Assembly: GCA_051747385.1 (NCBI GenBank)
Contig: JBNJGB010000024.1
Location: forward strand, 25,797 to 89,796
From: Myxococcota bacterium
GTDB taxonomy: Bacteria; Myxococcota_A; UBA9042; PHBI01; JACKFB01
Reading direction: 5' to 3'
DNA: 64,000 nucleotides
Position 1 is the stretch's first letter, and every line of letters starts with the position of its first letter. The notes under the pieces are model-generated. The model was not told the origin of the DNA. It ran no database searches and saw only the letters and a list, made by a program, of their open reading frames with translations. This document shows, in pieces, positions 10,135-64,000 of this stretch. The translations under genes were made by a program, and so were the position numbers.

Positions 10135-10284
10135 GCGGGGCGCTCTCGCAGGTCGGAGCATCGATCGCCGCCGGGGGCGGCGGCGGTCCGACTGCATCGT
10201 CCCCGTGTCCTCCGCGCCTTCGCGGCTTGGCGCCTTTGCGCGAGCCTTTGGGAGCCGGGGAGAGGAGTCTGAACGACCCGCGTC

Positions 10285-13929: not shown

Positions 13930-14486
13930 CAGGCCCCCTCCTTCACGTAGAGCGCGATGCGATCCTCCGGGGCGCCCTCCTCGATCAGCTCCACCTTGAC
14001 GGAGTGGCGCCGCTCCGTCGTGATCTGCTGGCCGACGAAGTCCGCCTGGATGGGAAGCTCCCGGTGGCCCCGGTCCACCAGCACGGCGAGCCGGATCCAC
14101 TCGGGCCGGCCGTAGTCGATGACCGCGTCCAGCCCGGCCCGCACCGTGCGCCCCGTGTAGAGGACGTCGTCGACGAGCAGCAGGCGCATGCCCGTGACGT
14201 CGAAGGGCATCTCCGTGCGGCCCACGACGGGCTGGGGCAGGCCGATGAAGACGTCGTCCCGGTACAGGGTGATGTCGATCATCCCCTCGGCCGGCCGGAT
14301 GCCCTCGTCCTCCTCGATGAGATCCACGAGCCTGCGGCCCAGGTGCACCCCGCCGCGGTGGATGCCGACGACGGCGAGGCGTTCGACGCCGCCCGTGGAC
14401 TCGACGATCTCGCGGGCGATGCGCCTCAGCGCCCGTCGAATGCCGTCGGCGTCGAGGAGGATGCGCTGGAGACGAAGCTCGCCCAT
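13929..14486 (-). CDS. pyrR: PyrR bifunctional pyrimidine regulatory protein / uracil phosphoribosyltransferase
   Basis: 185 aa with the PRPP-binding loop [13 protein letters not shown]. Confidence 0.85.
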
Positions 14487-14493
14487 GGTTCCC

Positions 14494-15555
14494 TCAGTCG
14501 AGCCAGGTGAACAGGCGCGAGGTGTCCCGCGCCCACCAGATCACGAACGCGTTGCCCTTGATGTCGTCGAAGTCGACGAAGCCCCAGAAGCGCCCGTCCT
14601 CCGACCGATCCCGGTTGTCGCCCATCACGAGGACGTGATCCTCCGGGACCACCACGTCGGGCCAGGCCTCGTTGGCGCCGGCGTCACCGATGTAGCGGCC
14701 GTGGCTGTCGCGGAGCGGCCAGTCGGGCTGGTTGACGCACCGGGCCCGGCCGAACACGCCGCCGCCGGGCGGGGTGAGCATGTGCTGGGTCGTGTACGTC
14801 GTGCCGTCGACCGTCTCCTCCTGCCGGACGCAGGGGCACTCGGCCACCGCGGCGCCGGCCTCGTCCCGGCCGCTGTCGTACACGGCGCACCGCGCCTCCC
14901 CCAGCACCTCCGTCGGGACCGGTTCGCCGTTGATCCACAGCCGGTTGTCCTCCAGGCGGACCCGGTCGCCGGGCAGCCCGATGACCCGCTTGATGTAGTC
15001 CTCGCCCTTGTGGGCGCCCGCGTGGTCGAACTCGAAGACGATGACGTCGCCGCGATCGGGCTCGTCCCAGTGGACCATGCGGTGGGACGAGAAGGGCACG
15101 TACAGCCCGAAGGCGATCTTGTTGACGAAGAGGCGATCCCCGATGTGCAGGGTCGGCAGCATGGACCCGCTGGGGATGGAGAAGGCCTCGAAGAAGAACG
15201 ACCGGATGAGCAGCGCCAGGCCGACGGCCCAGGCGATGGCCTCCACGTACTCCCGGAGCATGGTCTTGCGCCAGGAGCCGAAGTGCTCCTCGAGGGAGCG
15301 GTCGAGGGCCTCGGTCGCGGTCGCCAGCCTCTCCAGGTCGGCGTCGCGGCGCCCCCTGGCGGGGAGCGCGTCCCGCACGGCGTCCAGGTCCCCCCGCACG
15401 GTCTCCACCGCGGCCGAGCCAGCCCGCGTGCCCTTCTTCCGGACGAGCGTCGTGGCCTCCCGCACCAGCTCGCGGGCCCGGCGAACGAGTCGCTTGCGGG
15501 AGACCCCCTTGGAGCCTCCTCCGCGAGACGACCGGGTGTTGCCAGGCGGAGACAT
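14494..15555 (-). CDS. lepB: Signal peptidase I with a long basic N-terminal extension
   Basis: SGSMLPTL (Ser box), GDRL, KRVIGLPGD and GDNRDRSEDGRFWG boxes. Confidence 0.85.
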   Translation of the reverse strand: MSPPGNTRSSRGGGSKGVSRKRLVRRARELVREATTLVRKKGTRAGSAAVETVRGDLDAVRDALPARGRRDADLERLATATEALDRSLEEHFGSWRKTMLREYVEAIAWAVGLALLIRSFFFEAFSIPSGSMLPTLHIGDRLFVNKIAFGLYVPFSSHRMVHWDEPDRGDVIVFEFDHAGAHKGEDYIKRVIGLPGDRVRLEDNRLWINGEPVPTEVLGEARCAVYDSGRDEAGAAVAECPCVRQEETVDGTTYTTQHMLTPPGGGVFGRARCVNQPDWPLRDSHGRYIGDAGANEAWPDVVVPEDHVLVMGDNRDRSEDGRFWGFVDFDDIKGNAFVIWWARDTSRLFTWLD

Positions 15556-15650
15556 CCGAGCTCCGGAGCAGGGGTTCTTCGCGGCGCTCAGCGCATGGCG
15601 CGCGGCTCGCGCACGGCTTATAGGTGCCGGGGATCCCCGGTGTCAACGCC

Positions 15651-15836
15651 TCAGGGGCCGCCGAGCAGGGCGGTCGCAAAGTCGACCGCCCTCCCTTGCC
15701 TTTGCCCTTGCCCTTGCCCGTGCCTGCTCTCAGACGCGCAAAACCCATCGTTTCCGAGCGGGTGCAATCCGGGGCCGGGCGCCGTACCGCCGCACGGCCC
15801 TGACCTTTCCGACTTTGCGATTGCCCTGAGGGGCCG
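15651..15836 (+). mobile_element. Family A MITE-like element, copy 1 (core 15666..15826 plus flanking 10-bp direct repeats)
   Basis: From 5' to 3': AGGGCGGTCG, then a 9-bp hairpin (GGGCGGTCG-caaagt-CGACCGCCC), then five CCCTTG-type hexamers, then a conserved CCATCGTTTCCGAGCGGGTG box, ending in GCGATTGCCC. The ends form an imperfect terminal inverted repeat (GGGCGGTCGC versus GGGCAATCGC). Flanked by tcaggggccg and tgaggggccg. Confidence 0.5.
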
Positions 15837-15850
15837 AGTCGCCGCGCCCG

Positions 15851-17677
<1,827 letters not shown>

Positions 17678-19030: not shown

Positions 19031-19256
19031 CTCACAGCTCCTCACGTGGCGCGAGACGAAGTGCTCGCGCAAAGACGTGAAGACGCAAAGGAAAACGGCA
19101 CGCTCCGGCCCGGGTCGCTCGCTGCTGGCCTGCCGGTGGCCTGGCAGCCTCGGCCGAACCGGTGTGCGAGCGGTTTGCTGGCCTTCGAGGTTCGGCGGCG
19201 CGGCGCGCGATTGTCCGCGAGATCGCGGTATCCCGAGATGTGCAGGGCTGTGAGCC
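19031..19256 (+). mobile_element. Family B MITE-like element, copy 1
   Basis: About 80% identical over roughly 225 bp to 45052..45275. Ends form a terminal inverted repeat (ctcacag ... ctgtgagcc). Contains a conserved hairpin GCGCGAG-acgaagtg-CTCGCGC. Confidence 0.45.
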
Positions 19257-31075: not shown

Positions 31076-31200
31076 CGCGAGGCCTCGCGCAACGAATCGC
31101 CTCCAATCCGTCACGAGGAGGAGGGTGGGCGGGGGTGGGCCACCCGCGCCGGCGAGGTCGCCTGGCGACCATCCACACCTCCCCAGCTCCAGAGGGCTCG

Positions 31201-31244
31201 CGCCAAGTCACCAAGCCGCCAAGCCGCCAAGCCGCCAAGCCGCG
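31201..31244. repeat. Octamer tandem repeat (CCAAGCCG), about 4.5 units
   Basis: ccaagtca ccaagccg ccaagccg ccaagccg ccaagccg read directly. A nearby GTCCAC x3 hexamer run sits at 31384..31402. Confidence 0.6.
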
Positions 31245-31492
31245 GATCCCAGCGGGAAGTTGGAGCAGGACCGCCGTCCGCGGCGGTCACTCGCCGCTCC
31301 AACGGCGTCGGCAGCACGACGGGGCCCGGCCCCGAGCCCACTTTCGGTGCGACCAAGACGTCGTGCCCGGTGAGCGCGACCACGTCCACGTCCACGTCCA
31401 CGACCCCGTTTCGCGGCCTCTCGGCGAGTCGTGACCCATCGGCGGGCGACGCCGCCGGCGCTGCGCTGGCCTGTCGTGGTGACGCCGAGAGC

Positions 31493-32239
31493 CTACTCGT
31501 CGCAGTACCCGGCGCCCTGGTAGTAGCTCGAGCAGGCCGTGAAGTCGTCTCCGCAGGGCTGGGCGGCGGTGGTGTCGCACAGGCGGCGGCAGCCGTTGCC
31601 GACGCAGACGAGGCCGGCCTTGCAGGCGGCAGCCTCGTTGTCGCACGGGTCCTCCACGTCGCCGTCGCCGGCGGGGAGGCACACGGGCTCCGGCTCGCCG
31701 TCCACGAGGTAGCATCCCTTGCCGTCCTCGCAGTCCTGGGCGAGGAGGTCGCAGGTCTCGTAGATGCCCTCCTGCGCGCAGACCGAGTACGGCGAGTCCT
31801 GCAGGTTCAGGCAGTCGCCGTTGTCCGGGCAGTGGATGGGCGTCTCGCAGAAGGTGTAGCAGCGGAACTCGGTCTGGTTCAGCGACAGGCAGATGCCCTC
31901 GGTGCAGCTTCCGTCGACGTCCTCGCCGCACCGGGCGCCCGGCTCCAGCCCCCCGGCCTGGACGCAGCTCGGCTCGGTGGCGTCCTGGTCGGCGTACGTG
32001 CAGTTCTCACCCGCCGCGCAGCCCTCCTGGGTGATGGGATCGCAGGCCCCGGCGCCGGTCGTGTCGTCGCCGGCGGAGTCGCCGGGACCGGTGGAGTCCT
32101 CGCCGCCGGAGGCGTCGGGATCGCCGCTCACGGTGTCCGTCGTCCCGTTGTCGCCGTCGTCGTCGCAGGCGACCTGCAGGAAGGGGAGTGCCGCGAGGCA
32201 CAGGACGGCGGCGAACCGGGAGATGGCGCGGGTGGACAT
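31493..32239 (-). CDS. Secreted Cys-rich repeat lipoprotein (myxo-type disulfide-rich repeats), 248 aa
   Basis: Signal/lipobox MSTRAISRFAAVLCLAALPFLQVAC. Three tandem Cys-rich repeats of about 58 aa (C..C..G.NC........C...G). The true start at 32239 lies inside the spurious 600-aa track ORF. Confidence 0.75.
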   Translation of the reverse strand: MSTRAISRFAAVLCLAALPFLQVACDDDGDNGTTDTVSGDPDASGGEDSTGPGDSAGDDTTGAGACDPITQEGCAAGENCTYADQDATEPSCVQAGGLEPGARCGEDVDGSCTEGICLSLNQTEFRCYTFCETPIHCPDNGDCLNLQDSPYSVCAQEGIYETCDLLAQDCEDGKGCYLVDGEPEPVCLPAGDGDVEDPCDNEAAACKAGLVCVGNGCRRLCDTTAAQPCGDDFTACSSYYQGAGYCDE

Positions 32240-32307
32240 GGGCGTGCTCCTGCCTGCTCGGGACATCGGCGTGATGATGGGAGGAGGTCCCGCTCGACGC
32301 AAGGGAA

Positions 32308-35998: not shown

Positions 35999-38069
35999 GG
36001 CCCTGGGGTCCCTCCCACGTCGCGGAGGCGGAGGACTCGGTCTCGCGCCAGCGCGCACCGGCGGCGCGCCACGCCCGAAGCTCACGACGGAGCAGCGCCT
36101 CCCGGAGGCTCTCCGTGTCGGACGTCTCGGTCCGGGCCCAGCCCTCGTCGCCGCGCGCCAGCCAGCGCGAAGGCTCGTCCCCGCCGGGCTCGAGCAGAGC
36201 GCGCTCGCCCTGGACGACGAGCGCCGCCTCCCGGTGGGCCGAGAAGGCCGGGGTGGGCCACGCCGCGGGGACGATGGCCCGGACGTCCACGCCCTGGACG
36301 CCGTCGGGCGGGTCGACGCCGGCGAGACCCCACACCGTCGCGGCGAGGTCCGTCAGATCCACGGCCGAGTCCGACGCGGGCACCGGCGCGCCGACGACCC
36401 ACGCGGGCACGTGGGCGACCTCCGTGTGCATCGCCACGTCGCCAGGGAGGGCGCCGGCCCCCACACCCGCCACCACGACCACGGCGTCGGGCGCCAGGGT
36501 GCGCGCCTGCTTCACGAAGTCCCCGACGGCCGCCATCACCTCGTCGGCCTTGCCCTTCCGGAGCACCTCGAGGAACGCGCGGTCCCGCTGGTCCAGGGTG
36601 CGCCGTCCGGCGCGGACGTCGGACAGCACCTCGCGCGTGGTGGCGGGGTCCCACGGGGGATCGCCGCGCCCGCCCCAGTGCTCCTTCCAGGCCTCGCCCC
36701 GGGGCAGCCACGGCGGCCCGGTGTCCCCCAGGAGGGCGGCCGCGAAGACCTTGCCGTCCCCGGCCTCGCGCAGAGCGTCGACGAGGCTCGTGAGCACCGG
36801 CGCGGCGTGGGGCAGCAGGTCGCCGCCGGAGGCGAGGAGAGAGTCGTCGAAACCGCGCACCGGCGAGGCCTCGCCACCCAGCGGCACCGGGCCGGCGCGC
36901 AGGATGGTGTCCCACCCGGCGTCGCGGAGGCTCTTGGCCAGGGTCGGAATCTCGTCGTTCAGGCGGTCCGAACGCGCCTGCACGCCGTGGCCCGCCGGAT
37001 ATCGGCCGGTCCACAGCGACGCGACGGCGGGCCGCAGGTCCAGCGCGGAGGTCCACGCGCTGGTCAGCAGCGTCGCGTCCGGCAGGTCGTCCTCGCCGAC
37101 GTCCGTCGCACGGAGCCCTCTCACGCCGACGAGGATGATCTTGTCCGCGGTGGTCTTCGCCGGCGGCGTCTCCGACCGGGTGCCGGGGACGGTGAGGGTG
37201 GGGGCCACGAGGCCCGCGGCGCCGCCTCCCTCCCCCTCGACGCCGAGGCGGAGCCACACCGGCGACCGGCGGCCGCCCCGGGAGAGGTCGAGGTTCCACG
37301 GCATCTGCAGGGCGGCCGGCAGGGCGGCCACGCGGTCGACGGCGCCCTCGGCGCTGATACGCTCCACGACCACGCGGAGCTTCGAGGCGTCGCCGCGAAG
37401 CCGGACGCCGGACGTCTCCAGGGCCTGCTCGGGCTGCAAGGGCGCGGGCATGGTCACCTGCACGCCGCGCTCGAGCCAGAGCACGTCGCCGGCGGCCAGC
37501 GGTCCGGCGGGGGCCTCCCCGGGGGGGGCCGCCTCCGTGTCGAACACCACCGCGTGGAGGAGGGCGCGGACGTCGCGCGGCATCCCGGGACCCTCCGGCG
37601 CTGGGCGCGTGACCTTCGAGAAGGTCATCGTCAGGCGGCGCCGCCCGGCGTCGTCCGGCTTTATCGCCAGGCCTGCGCGCTGCCACCCCTCCTCCAGCGG
37701 GTGGGTGCCGAGCTCGCGGTCTCCGAGGGTCACGGTGAGATCCCGCGGGCCGTGGGCCGGGCGGAGGAGCAGGTCCATGCGCCTGGCGCCGGCGGGGACG
37801 ACGACCTGGAGGACGGCGCGGGGGTGGGTCACCGGTCGATACGACCAGCCCTCCCCGTCGCAGCCGGGCTCGCCGAACGCGTAGGTCCCCTCCGGGCCGG
37901 CGGCGGTGAAGAAGCCCGGCCCTGAGGCGTCGACGCGGCCGGTCCCGTATGCCGCCAGCCGGATCAGGTCGGCGGAGTCCAGGCGCCCGGGGAGGGCGGC
38001 CGTCGCCTCCGGGGCGAGCGCCGCGAAAACCAGGAGGGCCAGCGCGTGACGAGCGAGGATCCGGATCAT
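35976..38069 (-). CDS. Secreted alkaline-phosphatase/sulfatase-superfamily protein with a degenerate active site (pseudo-sulfatase), 698 aa
   Basis: Signal peptide MIRILARHALALLVFAALAPEATAA. The central region aligns to the sulfatase N-terminal domain (ILVGVRG..., SLWTGRYPAGHGV, LAKSLRDAGWDT), but the CxPxR formylglycine motif reads LRPAV. The upstream 185 codons of the track ORF cross a repeat element and are not coding. Confidence 0.55.
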   Translation of the reverse strand: MIRILARHALALLVFAALAPEATAALPGRLDSADLIRLAAYGTGRVDASGPGFFTAAGPEGTYAFGEPGCDGEGWSYRPVTHPRAVLQVVVPAGARRMDLLLRPAHGPRDLTVTLGDRELGTHPLEEGWQRAGLAIKPDDAGRRRLTMTFSKVTRPAPEGPGMPRDVRALLHAVVFDTEAAPPGEAPAGPLAAGDVLWLERGVQVTMPAPLQPEQALETSGVRLRGDASKLRVVVERISAEGAVDRVAALPAALQMPWNLDLSRGGRRSPVWLRLGVEGEGGGAAGLVAPTLTVPGTRSETPPAKTTADKIILVGVRGLRATDVGEDDLPDATLLTSAWTSALDLRPAVASLWTGRYPAGHGVQARSDRLNDEIPTLAKSLRDAGWDTILRAGPVPLGGEASPVRGFDDSLLASGGDLLPHAAPVLTSLVDALREAGDGKVFAAALLGDTGPPWLPRGEAWKEHWGGRGDPPWDPATTREVLSDVRAGRRTLDQRDRAFLEVLRKGKADEVMAAVGDFVKQARTLAPDAVVVVAGVGAGALPGDVAMHTEVAHVPAWVVGAPVPASDSAVDLTDLAATVWGLAGVDPPDGVQGVDVRAIVPAAWPTPAFSAHREAALVVQGERALLEPGGDEPSRWLARGDEGWARTETSDTESLREALLRRELRAWRAAGARWRETESSASATWEGPQGHATTCDR

Positions 38070-38174
38070 GCCAACCGTCCGTAGCCGTGGCCGGTTCCGC
38101 CGTTGTCGGGACGCCCATCCTGGGGCGTGGAACGGAGTGCGGTTAGCACGCGGCTTCGCGCCGTGTAAAGGCAC

Positions 38175-38371
38175 CCGCCGGGTTCGGCCAGGGCGGTCGC
38201 ACAGTCGACCGCCCTCCCTTGCCTTTGCCCTTGCCCTTGCCCTTGCCCTTGCCCTTGCCTGCTTTCGAAGGCGTAGAGTCCATCGTTTCCGGGCGGGTGT
38301 CATGCGGTGCCGGGCGTCGGACCGCCGCGCGACCCTCCCTTGTCCGACTTTGCGATTGCCCCGCGGGTTCC
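38175..38371 (+). mobile_element. Family A MITE-like element, copy 2 (core 38190..38361)
   Basis: Same hairpin; seven CCCTTG hexamers (copy 1 has five); the CCATCGTTTCCGGGCGGGTG box; the GCGATTGCCC end. Flanked by direct repeats cccgccgggttc and cgcgggttcc. Confidence 0.5.
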
Positions 38372-38424
38372 CCTGGGCGGCGCGACGTTGACGCCCGGGG
38401 GGCGAGGCGCCAGCATCCACGCTC

Positions 38425-45041: not shown

Positions 45042-45285
45042 CCGTCCCCGGCTCACAGTTCGTCAGATGTCGCGAGACGAAGGGCTCGCGCAAAGACGCG
45101 AAGCCGCAAAGAAGGACGGCATGCTTCGGCTCGGTGTGCTCGCTCTCGGCCTGCCGGTGACGCGGCGGTCTCGGACGAACCGGTGTGCAACCGGTTCGCT
45201 GGCCTTGGGGTCCTGGCGGCTTGGCGCGCGATTCTCTTCGAGGCCCCGGCATTTCGAGTTGTGTAGGCCTGTGAGCCGTCCCCGG
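45042..45285 (+). mobile_element. Family B MITE-like element, copy 2 (core 45052..45275) with a perfect 10-bp target-site duplication
   Basis: Terminal inverted repeat ctcacag ... ctgtgag. The core is flanked immediately on both sides by CCGTCCCCGG (45042..45051 and 45276..45285). It lies in a convergent intergenic region. Confidence 0.5.
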
Positions 45286-56261: not shown

Positions 56262-56524
56262 CAGGCGGCTTGGACCGCGCGTCGTGCATATCTCGTCGAG
56301 AACCCGCGAAACGTGGTGTGGTCGGCGCACAGCGACCCCACGCGAGCCCGGAGCCCGCCGTCCAACGAACGCGACCGGCGCGCGGGACCGAGGCTGTCCC
56401 CGGCCGCGCGCCGGATACGCCGGTGGGAGTCGCTCCTTCAGGCACGGGCATGGGCAAGGGCAAAGGCAAGGGCGCGAGGCCACTTGCCGAGTTGAGCATG
56501 ATCGACAGGCGGCTTGGACCGCGC
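56262..56524 (-). repeat. Degenerate family A-related element, copy 3, flanked by 19-bp direct repeats
   Basis: Contains the hexamer core in reverse orientation (ggcacgggcatgggcaagggcaaaggcaaggg at 56441..56475) but lacks the hairpin. Flanked by identical caggcggcttggaccgcgc at 56262..56280 and 56506..56524. Confidence 0.4.
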
Positions 56525-61202: not shown

Positions 61203-61633
61203 GCGGAGAGGACGGCTGGAGCGACGAGCGGACGCCCCTCGCCGAGGTGCGGGAGCGGCTGCGGGCCTTCAACCGGGACCGGGAGTGGGGCCAGTTCCAC
61301 AAGCCCAAGGACCTGGCCATGGCCGTCACCATCGAGGCCGGAGAGCTCCTGGAGCCGTTCCTCTGGAAGGCGGAGGGCGAGGACCTGGACGTGGACCGCA
61401 TCCGCGAGGAGATCGCGGACGTGATCATCTGCGCCGTGAACCTCGCCGGGCGCCTGGACATCGACCTCCTCGAGGCCGTGGAGGCCAAGATCCGCCGCAA
61501 CGCCGAGAAGTATCCCGTCGAGCAGGCCCGCGGGCGCGCCGACAAGTACGATCAGCTCGACCAGCGGAGCGCAGGGCCTCGCGCCAAGGCGCCAAGCCGC
61601 GAAGCCGCGGAGAGTTCGGGAAAGATGGAGTAG
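61199..61633 (+). CDS. MazG-like nucleotide pyrophosphohydrolase (all-alpha NTP-PPase), 144 aa
   Basis: EWGQFHKPKDLAMAVTIEAGELLE...EEIADVIICAVNLA matches the MazG/NTP-PPase helix-metal-binding pattern. The TTG start overlaps the methyltransferase stop as TTGA. Confidence 0.6.
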   Translation: MSGEDGWSDERTPLAEVRERLRAFNRDREWGQFHKPKDLAMAVTIEAGELLEPFLWKAEGEDLDVDRIREEIADVIICAVNLAGRLDIDLLEAVEAKIRRNAEKYPVEQARGRADKYDQLDQRSAGPRAKAPSREAAESSGKME

Positions 61634-61718
61634 GAGCGTCGTCCTCGGCGGCGCCCCACGAGAGACAGTCGGGGCGGCGGCGCCGCCGGCGATGGATGCT
61701 CCTCGCCGCCAAGCCGCG

Positions 61719-63330
61719 TCAGAGCTTCCTGTACAGCGCCCAGCGACCCTGGCGCGCGACGAGCTCGACGCGGCGATCCCAGCGGCCGAAGGGATTCCTC
61801 GGGTGCTCGGGACCGCCGTCGCGCACGAGGAAGTAGTCGTACCAGCGGCCGTGGCGCGGGAAGCGGAATCGGTGCGGCGTCCACTCCCAGCGGTTCGGCA
61901 GGCGGGGCGGGGCGGCGCCGTCGGCGTAGCGCACCGGGGATTGCGGGAAGTCCACGAAGGAGAAGGTCGCGACCCCGCCGCGCTCGACGACGTAGTACTG
62001 CCCGAAGTGCAGGTAGGGCGCGTGGTTCACCACCTCGCTGCCCCGGTCGAAGATGAGCGCCGTGAGGCGCTTGCCCGGCGCGGCCTGCCGGACCACCTCG
62101 CGGACGGCGCCGGCCTCGTCCTCGAAGGCCTCGAACTTCTCCACGTGCACCGATGCAGCCCACAACGACAGCGCGGTGGCGGGGACGACCAGCAGCCACG
62201 GCCGCGCGGGGAGGCGCCGCCACGTGAGCGTCGCGAGGCCGAACAGGACCACCAGGGGGGCGAGCCGGTGCGAGATGGGCCAGATCCACTTGTAGGAGAT
62301 GGGCGACAGCAGGTAGATGCCCGCCATCACCACGGCGAGGATCTCCGGCGTGCGCTCCCGGAGCCAGGCCCGCCGCGGGCCGTAGTCGGCGATCTCCTCC
62401 GCCGCCGGGGACGAGCGCCGGAACAGGAAGAGCACCAGGCCGAGGGCGAGCAGGGCGAAGAGGAGGACGTCGTCCGCGTCGCCCCGGTAGGCGTCCAGGA
62501 GCTGGCGCGGGAAGGCGGACAGGCGGTCGAGCATGGGCTCCCAGCGGACGTCCACCGGGGAGACGTTCCGGCCGCCGTGTCCCTGCTGCCACTCCTCGGC
62601 GCCCGCCAGGATCCGCGAGCGCCCGATCCACACGCCGAGCAACGCGACGGCGGGGACCAGGTGGAGGCCCTGGCGCCACCAGTGCCGCGGGTGGAGCCCC
62701 CGGGGCGTCGTGAGGCCGACGATACCCGCGAACAGCCCGTACAGGAGGAACGGCTGGGCGTGGCTGTAGAAGAGCAGCACCGTGAGCGCCACGAGGCCTG
62801 TCCAGCGGATCCAGGAGAAGTCGTCGATCAGGCGCCGGAGCACCGCCAGCGCCCATAGCAGGATCGGGAACGCGGCCACGTAGTTCACGAAGCCCATGAA
62901 CAGGAACGTGTTGTAGGCCAGCGGCGCGGCGAGGAGCGCCACGGCCGGGTCCCGGCCGAAGGCGCGCAGGTAGGCCGCCATCGCCAGGGGCAGGCCGGCC
63001 GCGTACAGGGAAAGGACGACCCGGTTCGCCACCTCCAGGGGCATGAGCCAGGCCAGGGCGTCCACCGCGAAGTAGTAGGCCAGGTACTGGGTGTCGGCCA
63101 GGTGGACCTCGTAGTAGGGCGCCATGCCGAAGGCCGGATCGGCGAGGTCGTGGAGGATGCGGATCGTCGCCAGGTGCTGCGGCAGGTCCATGAACGGCAG
63201 CAGCGACGTCACCCACAGGGGCACCACCAGGGCGACCAGGCTGACCAGCAGCCCGGCGACCAGCCAGGGATCCCGACGGACGGCCGACCAGAGGGGTCGG
63301 GCGGCTGTGGGCGCGGGCTGGGACACGGTG
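61719..63330 (-). CDS. Hypothetical polytopic membrane protein with a C-terminal soluble domain
   Basis: About 11 predicted TM helices after WLVAGLLVSLVALVVPLWV. The track ORF 61719..63689 runs through a repeat element; the real start is probably near 63330 (GTG or internal Met, unresolved). Confidence 0.5.
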
Positions 63331-63393
63331 GCGCTCCTCTCCGGCGGGGCGTCGCCGTGGACGACGCCGGGGCAGCGGCTTATAGCGAGGGCG

Positions 63394-63600
63394 AGGGGGC
63401 TTCGGCAACCGGGAGGGGGCTTCGGCAACCGGGAGGGGGCTTCGGCCAGGGCAATCGCAGACTCGAAGAACTGTGGGCCGTTCGGCGGTACGGCGTCCGG
63501 CGCCGGATTGCACCCGCTCGGAAACGATGGACTTTGCGCGTCTGAGAGCAGGCAAGGGGGGCGGTCGACTTTGCGACCGCCCTGGGGCTTCGGCAACCGG
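63394..63600 (-). mobile_element. Family A MITE-like element, copy 4 (core 63449..63583, reverse orientation), flanked by tandemly repeated 16-20-bp direct repeats
   Basis: The reverse complement carries the same hairpin, one CCCTTG unit, the CCATCGTTTCCGAGCGGGTG box and the GCGATTGCCC end. Flanks: gggggcttcggcaaccggga repeated two and a half times on one side and ggggcttcggcaaccgg on the other. Confidence 0.5.
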
Positions 63601-63660
63601 GCCGTGTTGCGGACTCGCGCGCGTGTTAGCGTGGATCGCCACAGACCAGGAGGATCCGCC

Positions 63661-64000
63661 ATGGGCGACGAAGCCGCCGCCTTCCCCACCCACCTGAGCC
63701 TGGAGGACGCCTCGGAGCGCGTGCACGAGGCCGTCGAGGCTCACCTCGCGCGGGCCGAGCCCGAGATCGTGGAGGTCCCCATCTGGGAGGCCCGCGGCGG
63801 CGTGCTGGGCCGCGACGTGCTCGCGGATCGGGATCAGCCCCCCTTCGATCGCTCCGCCATGGATGGCTACGCCGTGCGCTCCGCGGACGTGGGCGAGGGC
63901 GGGGCGACGCTGAGGGTGGTGGGGGACCTGCCGGCCGGAGCCTCGTGGGATCGAGGGCTGGCCCCCGGCGAGGCCCTGGCCATCATGACGGGCGCGCCGG
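63661..64000 (+). CDS. moeA: Molybdopterin molybdotransferase MoeA, N-terminal part (continues beyond the window)
   Basis: ATG at 63661 with an AGGAGGAT Shine-Dalgarno. Translation MGDEAAAFPTHLSLEDASERVHEA...DQPPFDRSAMDGYAVRSADV matches the MoeA N-terminal domain. Not in the ORF track because it is truncated. Confidence 0.75.
   Translation, partial: MGDEAAAFPTHLSLEDASERVHEAVEAHLARAEPEIVEVPIWEARGGVLGRDVLADRDQPPFDRSAMDGYAVRSADVGEGGATLRVVGDLPAGASWDRGLAPGEALAIMTGAP

Follow-up and report, generated by a model that had tools for sequence, protein, structure and literature searches.

A short non-coding element of 138-175 bp, referred to here as Family A, was found in three full copies, all of them intergenic, in the 64-kb stretch of Myxococcota DNA analysed (hereafter, the window), as examined by alignment. 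Every copy has 19-nt terminal inverted repeats and is abutted by 10-bp target duplications, and the reconstructed empty site of one copy is a perfect tandem array, in agreement with the original prediction of a MITE with target-site duplications. Given that the ends of the element agree with those of the ISAs1 family in all respects compared while the transposase is missing, we regard it as a MITE of the ISAs1 type. Specifically, Family A is probably a MITE with ISAs1-type ends, on which an ISAs1-type transposase would act in trans.

Copies and Architecture of the Element

Family A had been described as four copies of one architecture. Three full copies were recovered, as listed below, but the fourth shares only 41 nt with them and has no element ends. 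The intervals originally proposed as the limits of the copies did not hold, as they contain flanking sequence, and the one for copy 3 also spans an unrelated 20-nt tandem array at 63393-63446.

15666-15828, plus strand: copy 1, full element of 163 bp (defined by alignment and ends)
38189-38363, plus strand: copy 2, full element of 175 bp, the most diverged copy (microsatellite at 38216-38259, box at 38280-38299)
63447-63584, minus strand: copy 3, full element of 138 bp (single CCCTTG unit, box at 63511-63530)

When the copies were aligned outside the CCCTTG tract, copies 1 and 3 were 90% identical, and copy 2 was 80-82% identical to either. An nhmmer profile built from the three copies retrieved all of them from the window at E-values of 1e-39 to 1e-51. 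Furthermore, a count of exactly three in the window was obtained for each of the GGGCGGTCGCAMAGTCGACCGCCC hairpin, the CCATCGTTTCCGRGCGGGTG box and the 3' end, where 0-0.16 would be expected by chance (window G+C, 72%). The three architectural features named previously were borne out by motif counts: the 5' hairpin, GGGCGGTCG-CAMAGT-CGACCGCCC, occurs three times where none is expected by chance; the conserved box CCATCGTTTCCGRGCGGGTG was likewise counted three times, with 0.04 expected; and the GCGATTGCCC 3' end is present in the copies. In copy 1, these internal features and the microsatellites of copies 1 and 2 lie as follows.

15667-15692, plus strand: subterminal hairpin of copy 1, AGGGCGGTCG-CAAAGT-CGACCGCCCT (motif count)
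15693-15724, plus strand: CCCTTG microsatellite of copy 1, 5.3 units (TRF)
15745-15764, plus strand: internal box of copy 1, CCATCGTTTCCGAGCGGGTG (motif count)
38216-38259, plus strand: CCCTTG microsatellite of copy 2, 7.3 units (TRF)

In copy 1, the first 10 nt of the left inverted repeat recur in inverted orientation inside the element, and pairing of the left repeat with this internal copy produces the hairpin. The hexamer counts given before were about right for copy 1 (~5) and copy 2 (~7); however, the single unit belongs to the reverse copy, copy 3, and not to the supposed fourth copy. Read on the complementary strand, the hexamer tract is (GGGCAA)n, which in copies 1 and 2 conforms to a G-quadruplex motif. 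Between copies 1 and 2, the ends and the 20-nt box differ at 4 of 64 positions, against 19 of 67 in the segments between them (Fisher p 0.001, with blocks defined post hoc). The low divergence of the ends and the box is most simply read as the result of selection acting on master copies to preserve sequences needed in cis for transposition.

The region at 56262-56524, which had been proposed as a degenerate fourth copy, is not an element copy, since its homology is limited to 41 nt without element ends.

56439-56479, minus strand: isolated fragment, hexamer module only (90% identity as reverse complement)

This fragment includes a CCTTTG variant unit and the CCCGTGCCTG tail, and the locus has 5.5 hexamer units. 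It corresponds to the sole significant nhmmer match in the window besides the three copies (56438-56477, E 5e-5). Neither the hairpin, the box, CAGGG ends nor inverted ends were found at 56262-56524. On the other hand, the 19-nt direct repeats reported there are real: CAGGCGGCTTGGACCGCGC occurs at 56262-56280 and 56506-56524 as perfect repeats 244 nt apart, around a non-coding stretch.

Boundaries, Terminal Inverted Repeats and Target Duplications

The limits of the element are CAGGG...CCCYG, since the similarity between copies stops exactly there in the alignment, starting 1 base earlier and ending 2 bases later than had been described. An imperfect terminal inverted repeat is present as predicted, although its length is 19 nt and not 10. 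In copy 1, the left (CAGGGCGGTCGCAAAGTCG) and right (CAGGGCAATCGCAAAGTCG) repeats match at 17 of 19 positions; read inward, the right end is CGGGGCAATCGCAAAGTCG in copy 2 and CAGGGCAATCGCAGACTCG in copy 3. Five of the six ends start with CAGGG, the exception being the right end of copy 2, which reads CGGGG and is mutated at position 2. The direct repeats said to bracket each copy are likewise real and abut both ends in 3/3 copies, but the strings quoted for them were imprecise and their true length is exactly 10 bp.

15666-15684, plus strand: left terminal inverted repeat of copy 1, CAGGGCGGTCGCAAAGTCG
15810-15828, minus strand: right terminal inverted repeat of copy 1, CAGGGCAATCGCAAAGTCG read inward
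15653-15665, plus strand: upstream target duplication of copy 1, AGGGGCCG(CCG)AG, with a 3-nt CCG insertion
15829-15838, plus strand: downstream target duplication of copy 1, AGGGGCCGAG
38179-38188, plus strand: upstream target duplication of copy 2, CGGGTTCGGC, 8/10 with two substitutions
38364-38373, plus strand: downstream target duplication of copy 2, CGGGTTCCCC
63585-63594, minus strand: upstream target duplication of copy 3, GCCGAAGCCC, 10/10
63437-63446, minus strand: downstream target duplication of copy 3, GCCGAAGCCC, part of the 20-nt tandem array

For copy 1, the flanks GGCCGCCGAG and AGGGGCCGAG match at 7 of 10 positions without gaps and at 10 of 10 when the CCG insertion is allowed. 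When registers of 4-15 nt were compared, the best flank register was 10 nt and was unique in every copy, whereas cross-copy pairings of flanks, used as a control, gave only 1-5 matches. Against a background of 200,000 random site pairs with the same spacing within the window, the probability of at least 7 matches was 0.008, that of at least 8 was 0.0015 and that of 10 was 1e-5. Decay of the duplications since insertion would account for the imperfect repeats of copies 1 and 2 in this set of only three copies.

Copy 3 allowed an internal reconstruction of the empty site. Deleting this copy together with one repeat in silico yields a perfect 3 x 20-nt array of CCGGTTGCCGAAGCCCCCTC. The insertion target of copy 3 is this 20-nt tandem array, which occupies 63393-63446 and 63585-63601. 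Every 20-nt unit also contains TTGCCG, a possible -35 element of the minus-strand gene whose start is near 63326.

Likeness of the Ends to the ISAs1 Family

The ISAs1 family is characterised by inverted repeats of 14-22 bp, a CAGGG start and a 10-bp direct repeat (PMC11946415). One of its members, ISArsp11 on an Arthrobacter plasmid, has the left inverted repeat CAGGGCTGATGCAAAGTCG, the right inverted repeat CAGGGCTAATGCAAAGTCG and a 10-bp direct repeat (PMC6305408). Each inverted repeat of ISArsp11 is identical at 16 of 19 positions to the corresponding end of Family A, and at position 8 the two elements also share a G in the left repeat and an A in the right one. When the ISArsp11 inverted repeat was used as a probe with up to 3 mismatches, three matches were found in the window, all of them Family A ends, against 0.01 expected.

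Individual annotated elements gave the same picture of the family's ends. The H-repeat of E. coli K-12, which carries yhhI, has the ends CAGGG...CCCTG. A tblastn search with YhhI matched 868 plasmids, from which 6 loci were fetched. Ends could be defined in five of these six ISAs1 loci, and all five read CAGGG...CCCTG, with the left and right repeats in agreement at 16-21 of 25 positions; in the sixth, a Bradyrhizobium element, just one CAGGGC-type end was observed. Perfect 10-bp duplications flank three of the five, namely ISRm21 of Sinorhizobium (CCCTTGAGGG), the Azospirillum element (GCCGGTCACG) and the Ralstonia element (GCTGCGGGGG), while a clear duplication was not evident around the two Streptomyces ISAs1 elements, whose ends are also CAGGG. 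In the Azospirillum element, the inverted repeats begin with CAGGGCAATCGC, the same 12 nt with which the right end of Family A opens, and the transposase is annotated as "ISAs1-like element ISAzs15 family", with PF01609 and PF13808.

Taken together, the CAGGG...CCCTG ends, the 19-nt inverted repeat, which falls in the 14-22 range, and the 10-bp duplication of Family A all agree with the ISAs1 family, as compared with the published ISArsp11 and individual annotated ISAs1 elements. The original prediction had not recognised any described family. This stands in so far as Family A is a new sequence family, yet its ends carry the ISAs1 signature seen in the literature and in annotated ISAs1 elements. 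ISAs1 insertion sequences are about 1.2-1.4 kb in length and encode a transposase (PF01609 plus PF13808), whereas Family A is 138-175 bp and has none. The missing transposase is expected of a non-autonomous derivative; Family A is therefore designated ISAs1-type and is not counted among the ISAs1 insertion sequences.

An alternative is that Family A is a MITE moved by a DDE transposase of another or undescribed family, its ISAs1-like ends being coincidental or convergent. No cognate transposase lies in the 64-kb window, where tblastn did not detect an ISAs1 transposase, and the similarity to ISAs1 is restricted to the inverted repeats: in comparisons with seven ISAs1 loci, none was found beyond the terminal 12-19 nt. 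With the Azospirillum transposase as a query, only relatives of alphaproteobacterial type were returned and no Myxococcota ISAs1. However, coincidence or convergence would have to produce three independent features at once, namely a CAGGG terminus, inverted repeats of fitting length and a duplication of 10 bp, in addition to ends that are 16/19 identical to one published ISAs1 inverted repeat and 12/12 to another. We consider this alternative unlikely and retain the assignment to an ISAs1-type transposase.

Gene Context, Coding Capacity and RNA Structure

Neighbouring genes were identified with Pfam. Copy 1 occupies the spacer of two minus-strand genes, lepA and lepB, 22 nt past the stop codon of the former (15851-15853) and about 110 nt upstream of the start of the latter (15555), and is antisense to both. 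Copy 2 has a minus-strand gene on one side and, on the other, the plus-strand gene for an LMW phosphotyrosine phosphatase (38425); copy 3 lies between divergently oriented genes, within the 20-nt tandem array. This inconsistent orientation relative to the neighbours fits insertion wherever it is tolerated and not a dedicated regulatory role.

Promoter candidates were seen by eye in the flanks. TATAAG hexamers resembling -10 sites lie outside the element, and a candidate lepB promoter, TTGACA-18-TATAAG, is located directly outside the left end of copy 1. The sequence CTATAAGCCG occurs twice on the minus strand, at 15614-15623 and 63376-63385, each about 50-70 nt upstream of the start of a minus-strand gene; the genes downstream are lepB and an ORF resembling a membrane protein. 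Both sites probably represent TATAAG-type -10 regions, which the promoter scan rejects, position 6 not being T. The scan scored no promoter-like or terminator-like sites inside or beside the copies.

The element has no coding capacity, as had been proposed. Six-frame translations show no conserved reading frame: the GK frame is common to copies 1 and 2 but shifted in copy 3, and its upstream residues differ between copies; a GK-repeat small protein was ruled out on the same two grounds, frame and residues. A six-frame translation with the microsatellite removed matched nothing at E<=10 among 5.8 billion proteins. Separately, spurious long ORFs or N-terminal extensions run across the copies at 14188-15948 (plus), 14684-15748 (minus), 61719-63689 (minus) and 38068-38391 (plus), and automatic annotation could mis-call gene starts where such false ORFs cross the copies.

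The copies might instead be structured RNA genes or cis-regulatory RNA, such as an sRNA, an attenuator or an mRNA stabiliser, or a MITE exapted for such a role. Several observations point in this direction. Both strands fold far more stably than shuffled controls, with z-scores of -5.3 and -3.5, and all mismatches in the terminal helix, together with four one-sided changes in an inner helix, still allow G-U pairing when the plus strand of the element is read. The lower divergence of the ends and the internal box, and the position of copy 1 just beyond the lepA stop codon, could be read in the same way. However, the strong folding arises because of the terminal inverted repeat itself, and the asymmetry between the left and right ends is also present in ISArsp11 and is therefore inherited, not selected for RNA pairing. 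In addition, Rfam 15 had no family over the copies, with nothing meaningful at E<=10 for copies 1 and 2, and only two tRNAs reached the gathering score across the window. Covariation, which had been named beforehand as evidence that would count against a MITE, did not emerge: consensus folding of the two strands yielded 0 and 1 compensatory pairs, although three copies give little power. An RNA function also sits poorly with copies that are antisense to both neighbours in one case and between divergent genes in the other two, with the lack of promoter-like and terminator-like sites in or next to them, and with target duplications, which require transposition. We judge this reading to be very unlikely.

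A further conjecture is that the element has been domesticated, with the box, the hairpin and the hexamer tract forming a cis-regulatory cassette in which the repeat number tunes neighbouring genes such as lepB. If true, this would amount to contingency-locus behaviour in a Myxococcota lineage, acting via transcription or read-through; we rate it as highly improbable. Finally, the perfect GC-rich hairpin of 9-10 bp at one end and the intergenic location of the copies resemble a hairpin element derived from IS200/IS605 or a REP/BIME-like palindrome that a RAYT (Y1) transposase has dispersed, but the REP-like structured repeat offered in the original prediction is hardly tenable, since the hairpin is confined to the three full copies in the window, at one end only and never solo, and terminal inverted repeats with fixed 10-bp duplications are not made by those systems.

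Distribution and Other Repeats in the Window

Family A has three dispersed copies in the 64 kb of the window. The core 20-mer of the element gave 12 and 16 matches in GTDB representative genomes and JGI metagenomes, respectively, all of which were limited to the 20-mer and correspond to chance. In viral contigs, the hairpin had 0 matches, and the inverted-repeat pattern had 7, each of which lies inside a coding sequence of a phage and not at the end of an IS. The LepB encoded in the window is 100% identical to the NCBI protein MGM0577311.1, and the next closest among 5.8 billion proteins is 66% identical. In the four nearest retrievable relatives (about 60-66% LepB identity), the element is absent and the synteny upstream of lepB is different; the 62 kb of sequence from relatives held neither an element copy nor a cognate autonomous IS.

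Other repeats were also observed in the window. A second MITE-like family has two intergenic copies, at 19031-19254 and 45052-45275, which are 76% identical and have the ends CTCACAG...CTGTGAG. Its copies are abutted by 10-bp direct repeats, which are CCGTCCCCGG (10/10) in one case and CCAACGGCGA and CCTCCGGCGA (8/10) in the other. Intergenic octamer microsatellites are located at ~10209-10257, 19059-19095, 31192-31243, 45080-45115 and 61565-61653; their units are CGCCAAGC or CGCAAAG-like, a GGGCTCGCGCAAAG-like motif precedes each, and two of them sit within the second MITE-like family. The region at 31076-32307 comprises 1.2 kb without a confident gene call and contains three different tandem arrays, whose periods are 8, 6 and 33 nt.

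Proposed Mobilisation and Significance

As a MITE, Family A is an insertion sequence reduced to a short stretch without coding capacity, which retains just the two ends recognised by the transposase. An ISAs1-family DDE transposase, presumably encoded elsewhere in the genome, would bind the 19-nt inverted repeats. Insertion would take place at a 10-bp staggered cut, the repair of which would leave a 10-bp direct repeat on either side. The length of the CCCTTG tract may shift through replication slippage after or between insertions, and the left-end hairpin and the internal box may be cis-acting sequences or relics of the parent element. Where a copy is co-transcribed with a neighbouring mRNA, for example in the lepA-lepB spacer, the ends would pair into a long stem-loop, which could influence read-through or stability as a putative side effect and not as an established function.

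The assignment predicts that the genome holds an ISAs1-family transposase with matching ends. Family A is a new family of MITEs, from an uncultured lineage of Myxococcota, whose ends are of the ISAs1 type, although the kind of system is known. In practical terms, the consensus of ~160 bp can be used as a mask for spurious ORFs and N-terminal extensions in this genome of 72% G+C; the MITE copies may account for assembly breaks, and the hexamer tract and the presence or absence of copies are possible strain markers. In a text search of the literature, no mention of an ISAs1-derived MITE was found.

Comparison with Known Systems

Bacterial MITEs such as Correia/NEMIS, MITEAba12 and the MaeMITEs of Microcystis are likewise small, non-coding and intergenic, occur in multiple copies, and have inverted repeats and target duplications. 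Family A also resembles them in that it would form a long hairpin if transcribed, whereas its sequence is unrelated to theirs. With regard to the variable tract, BrickBuilt, a MITE of Porphyromonas gingivalis, is reported to have an interior tandem repeat of variable copy number (PMC4596501), as observed here. BrickBuilt is described as carrying a minisatellite, whereas Family A carries a 6-nt microsatellite of 1-7 units in Myxococcota DNA of 72% G+C, and the ends and hosts of the two elements are unrelated.
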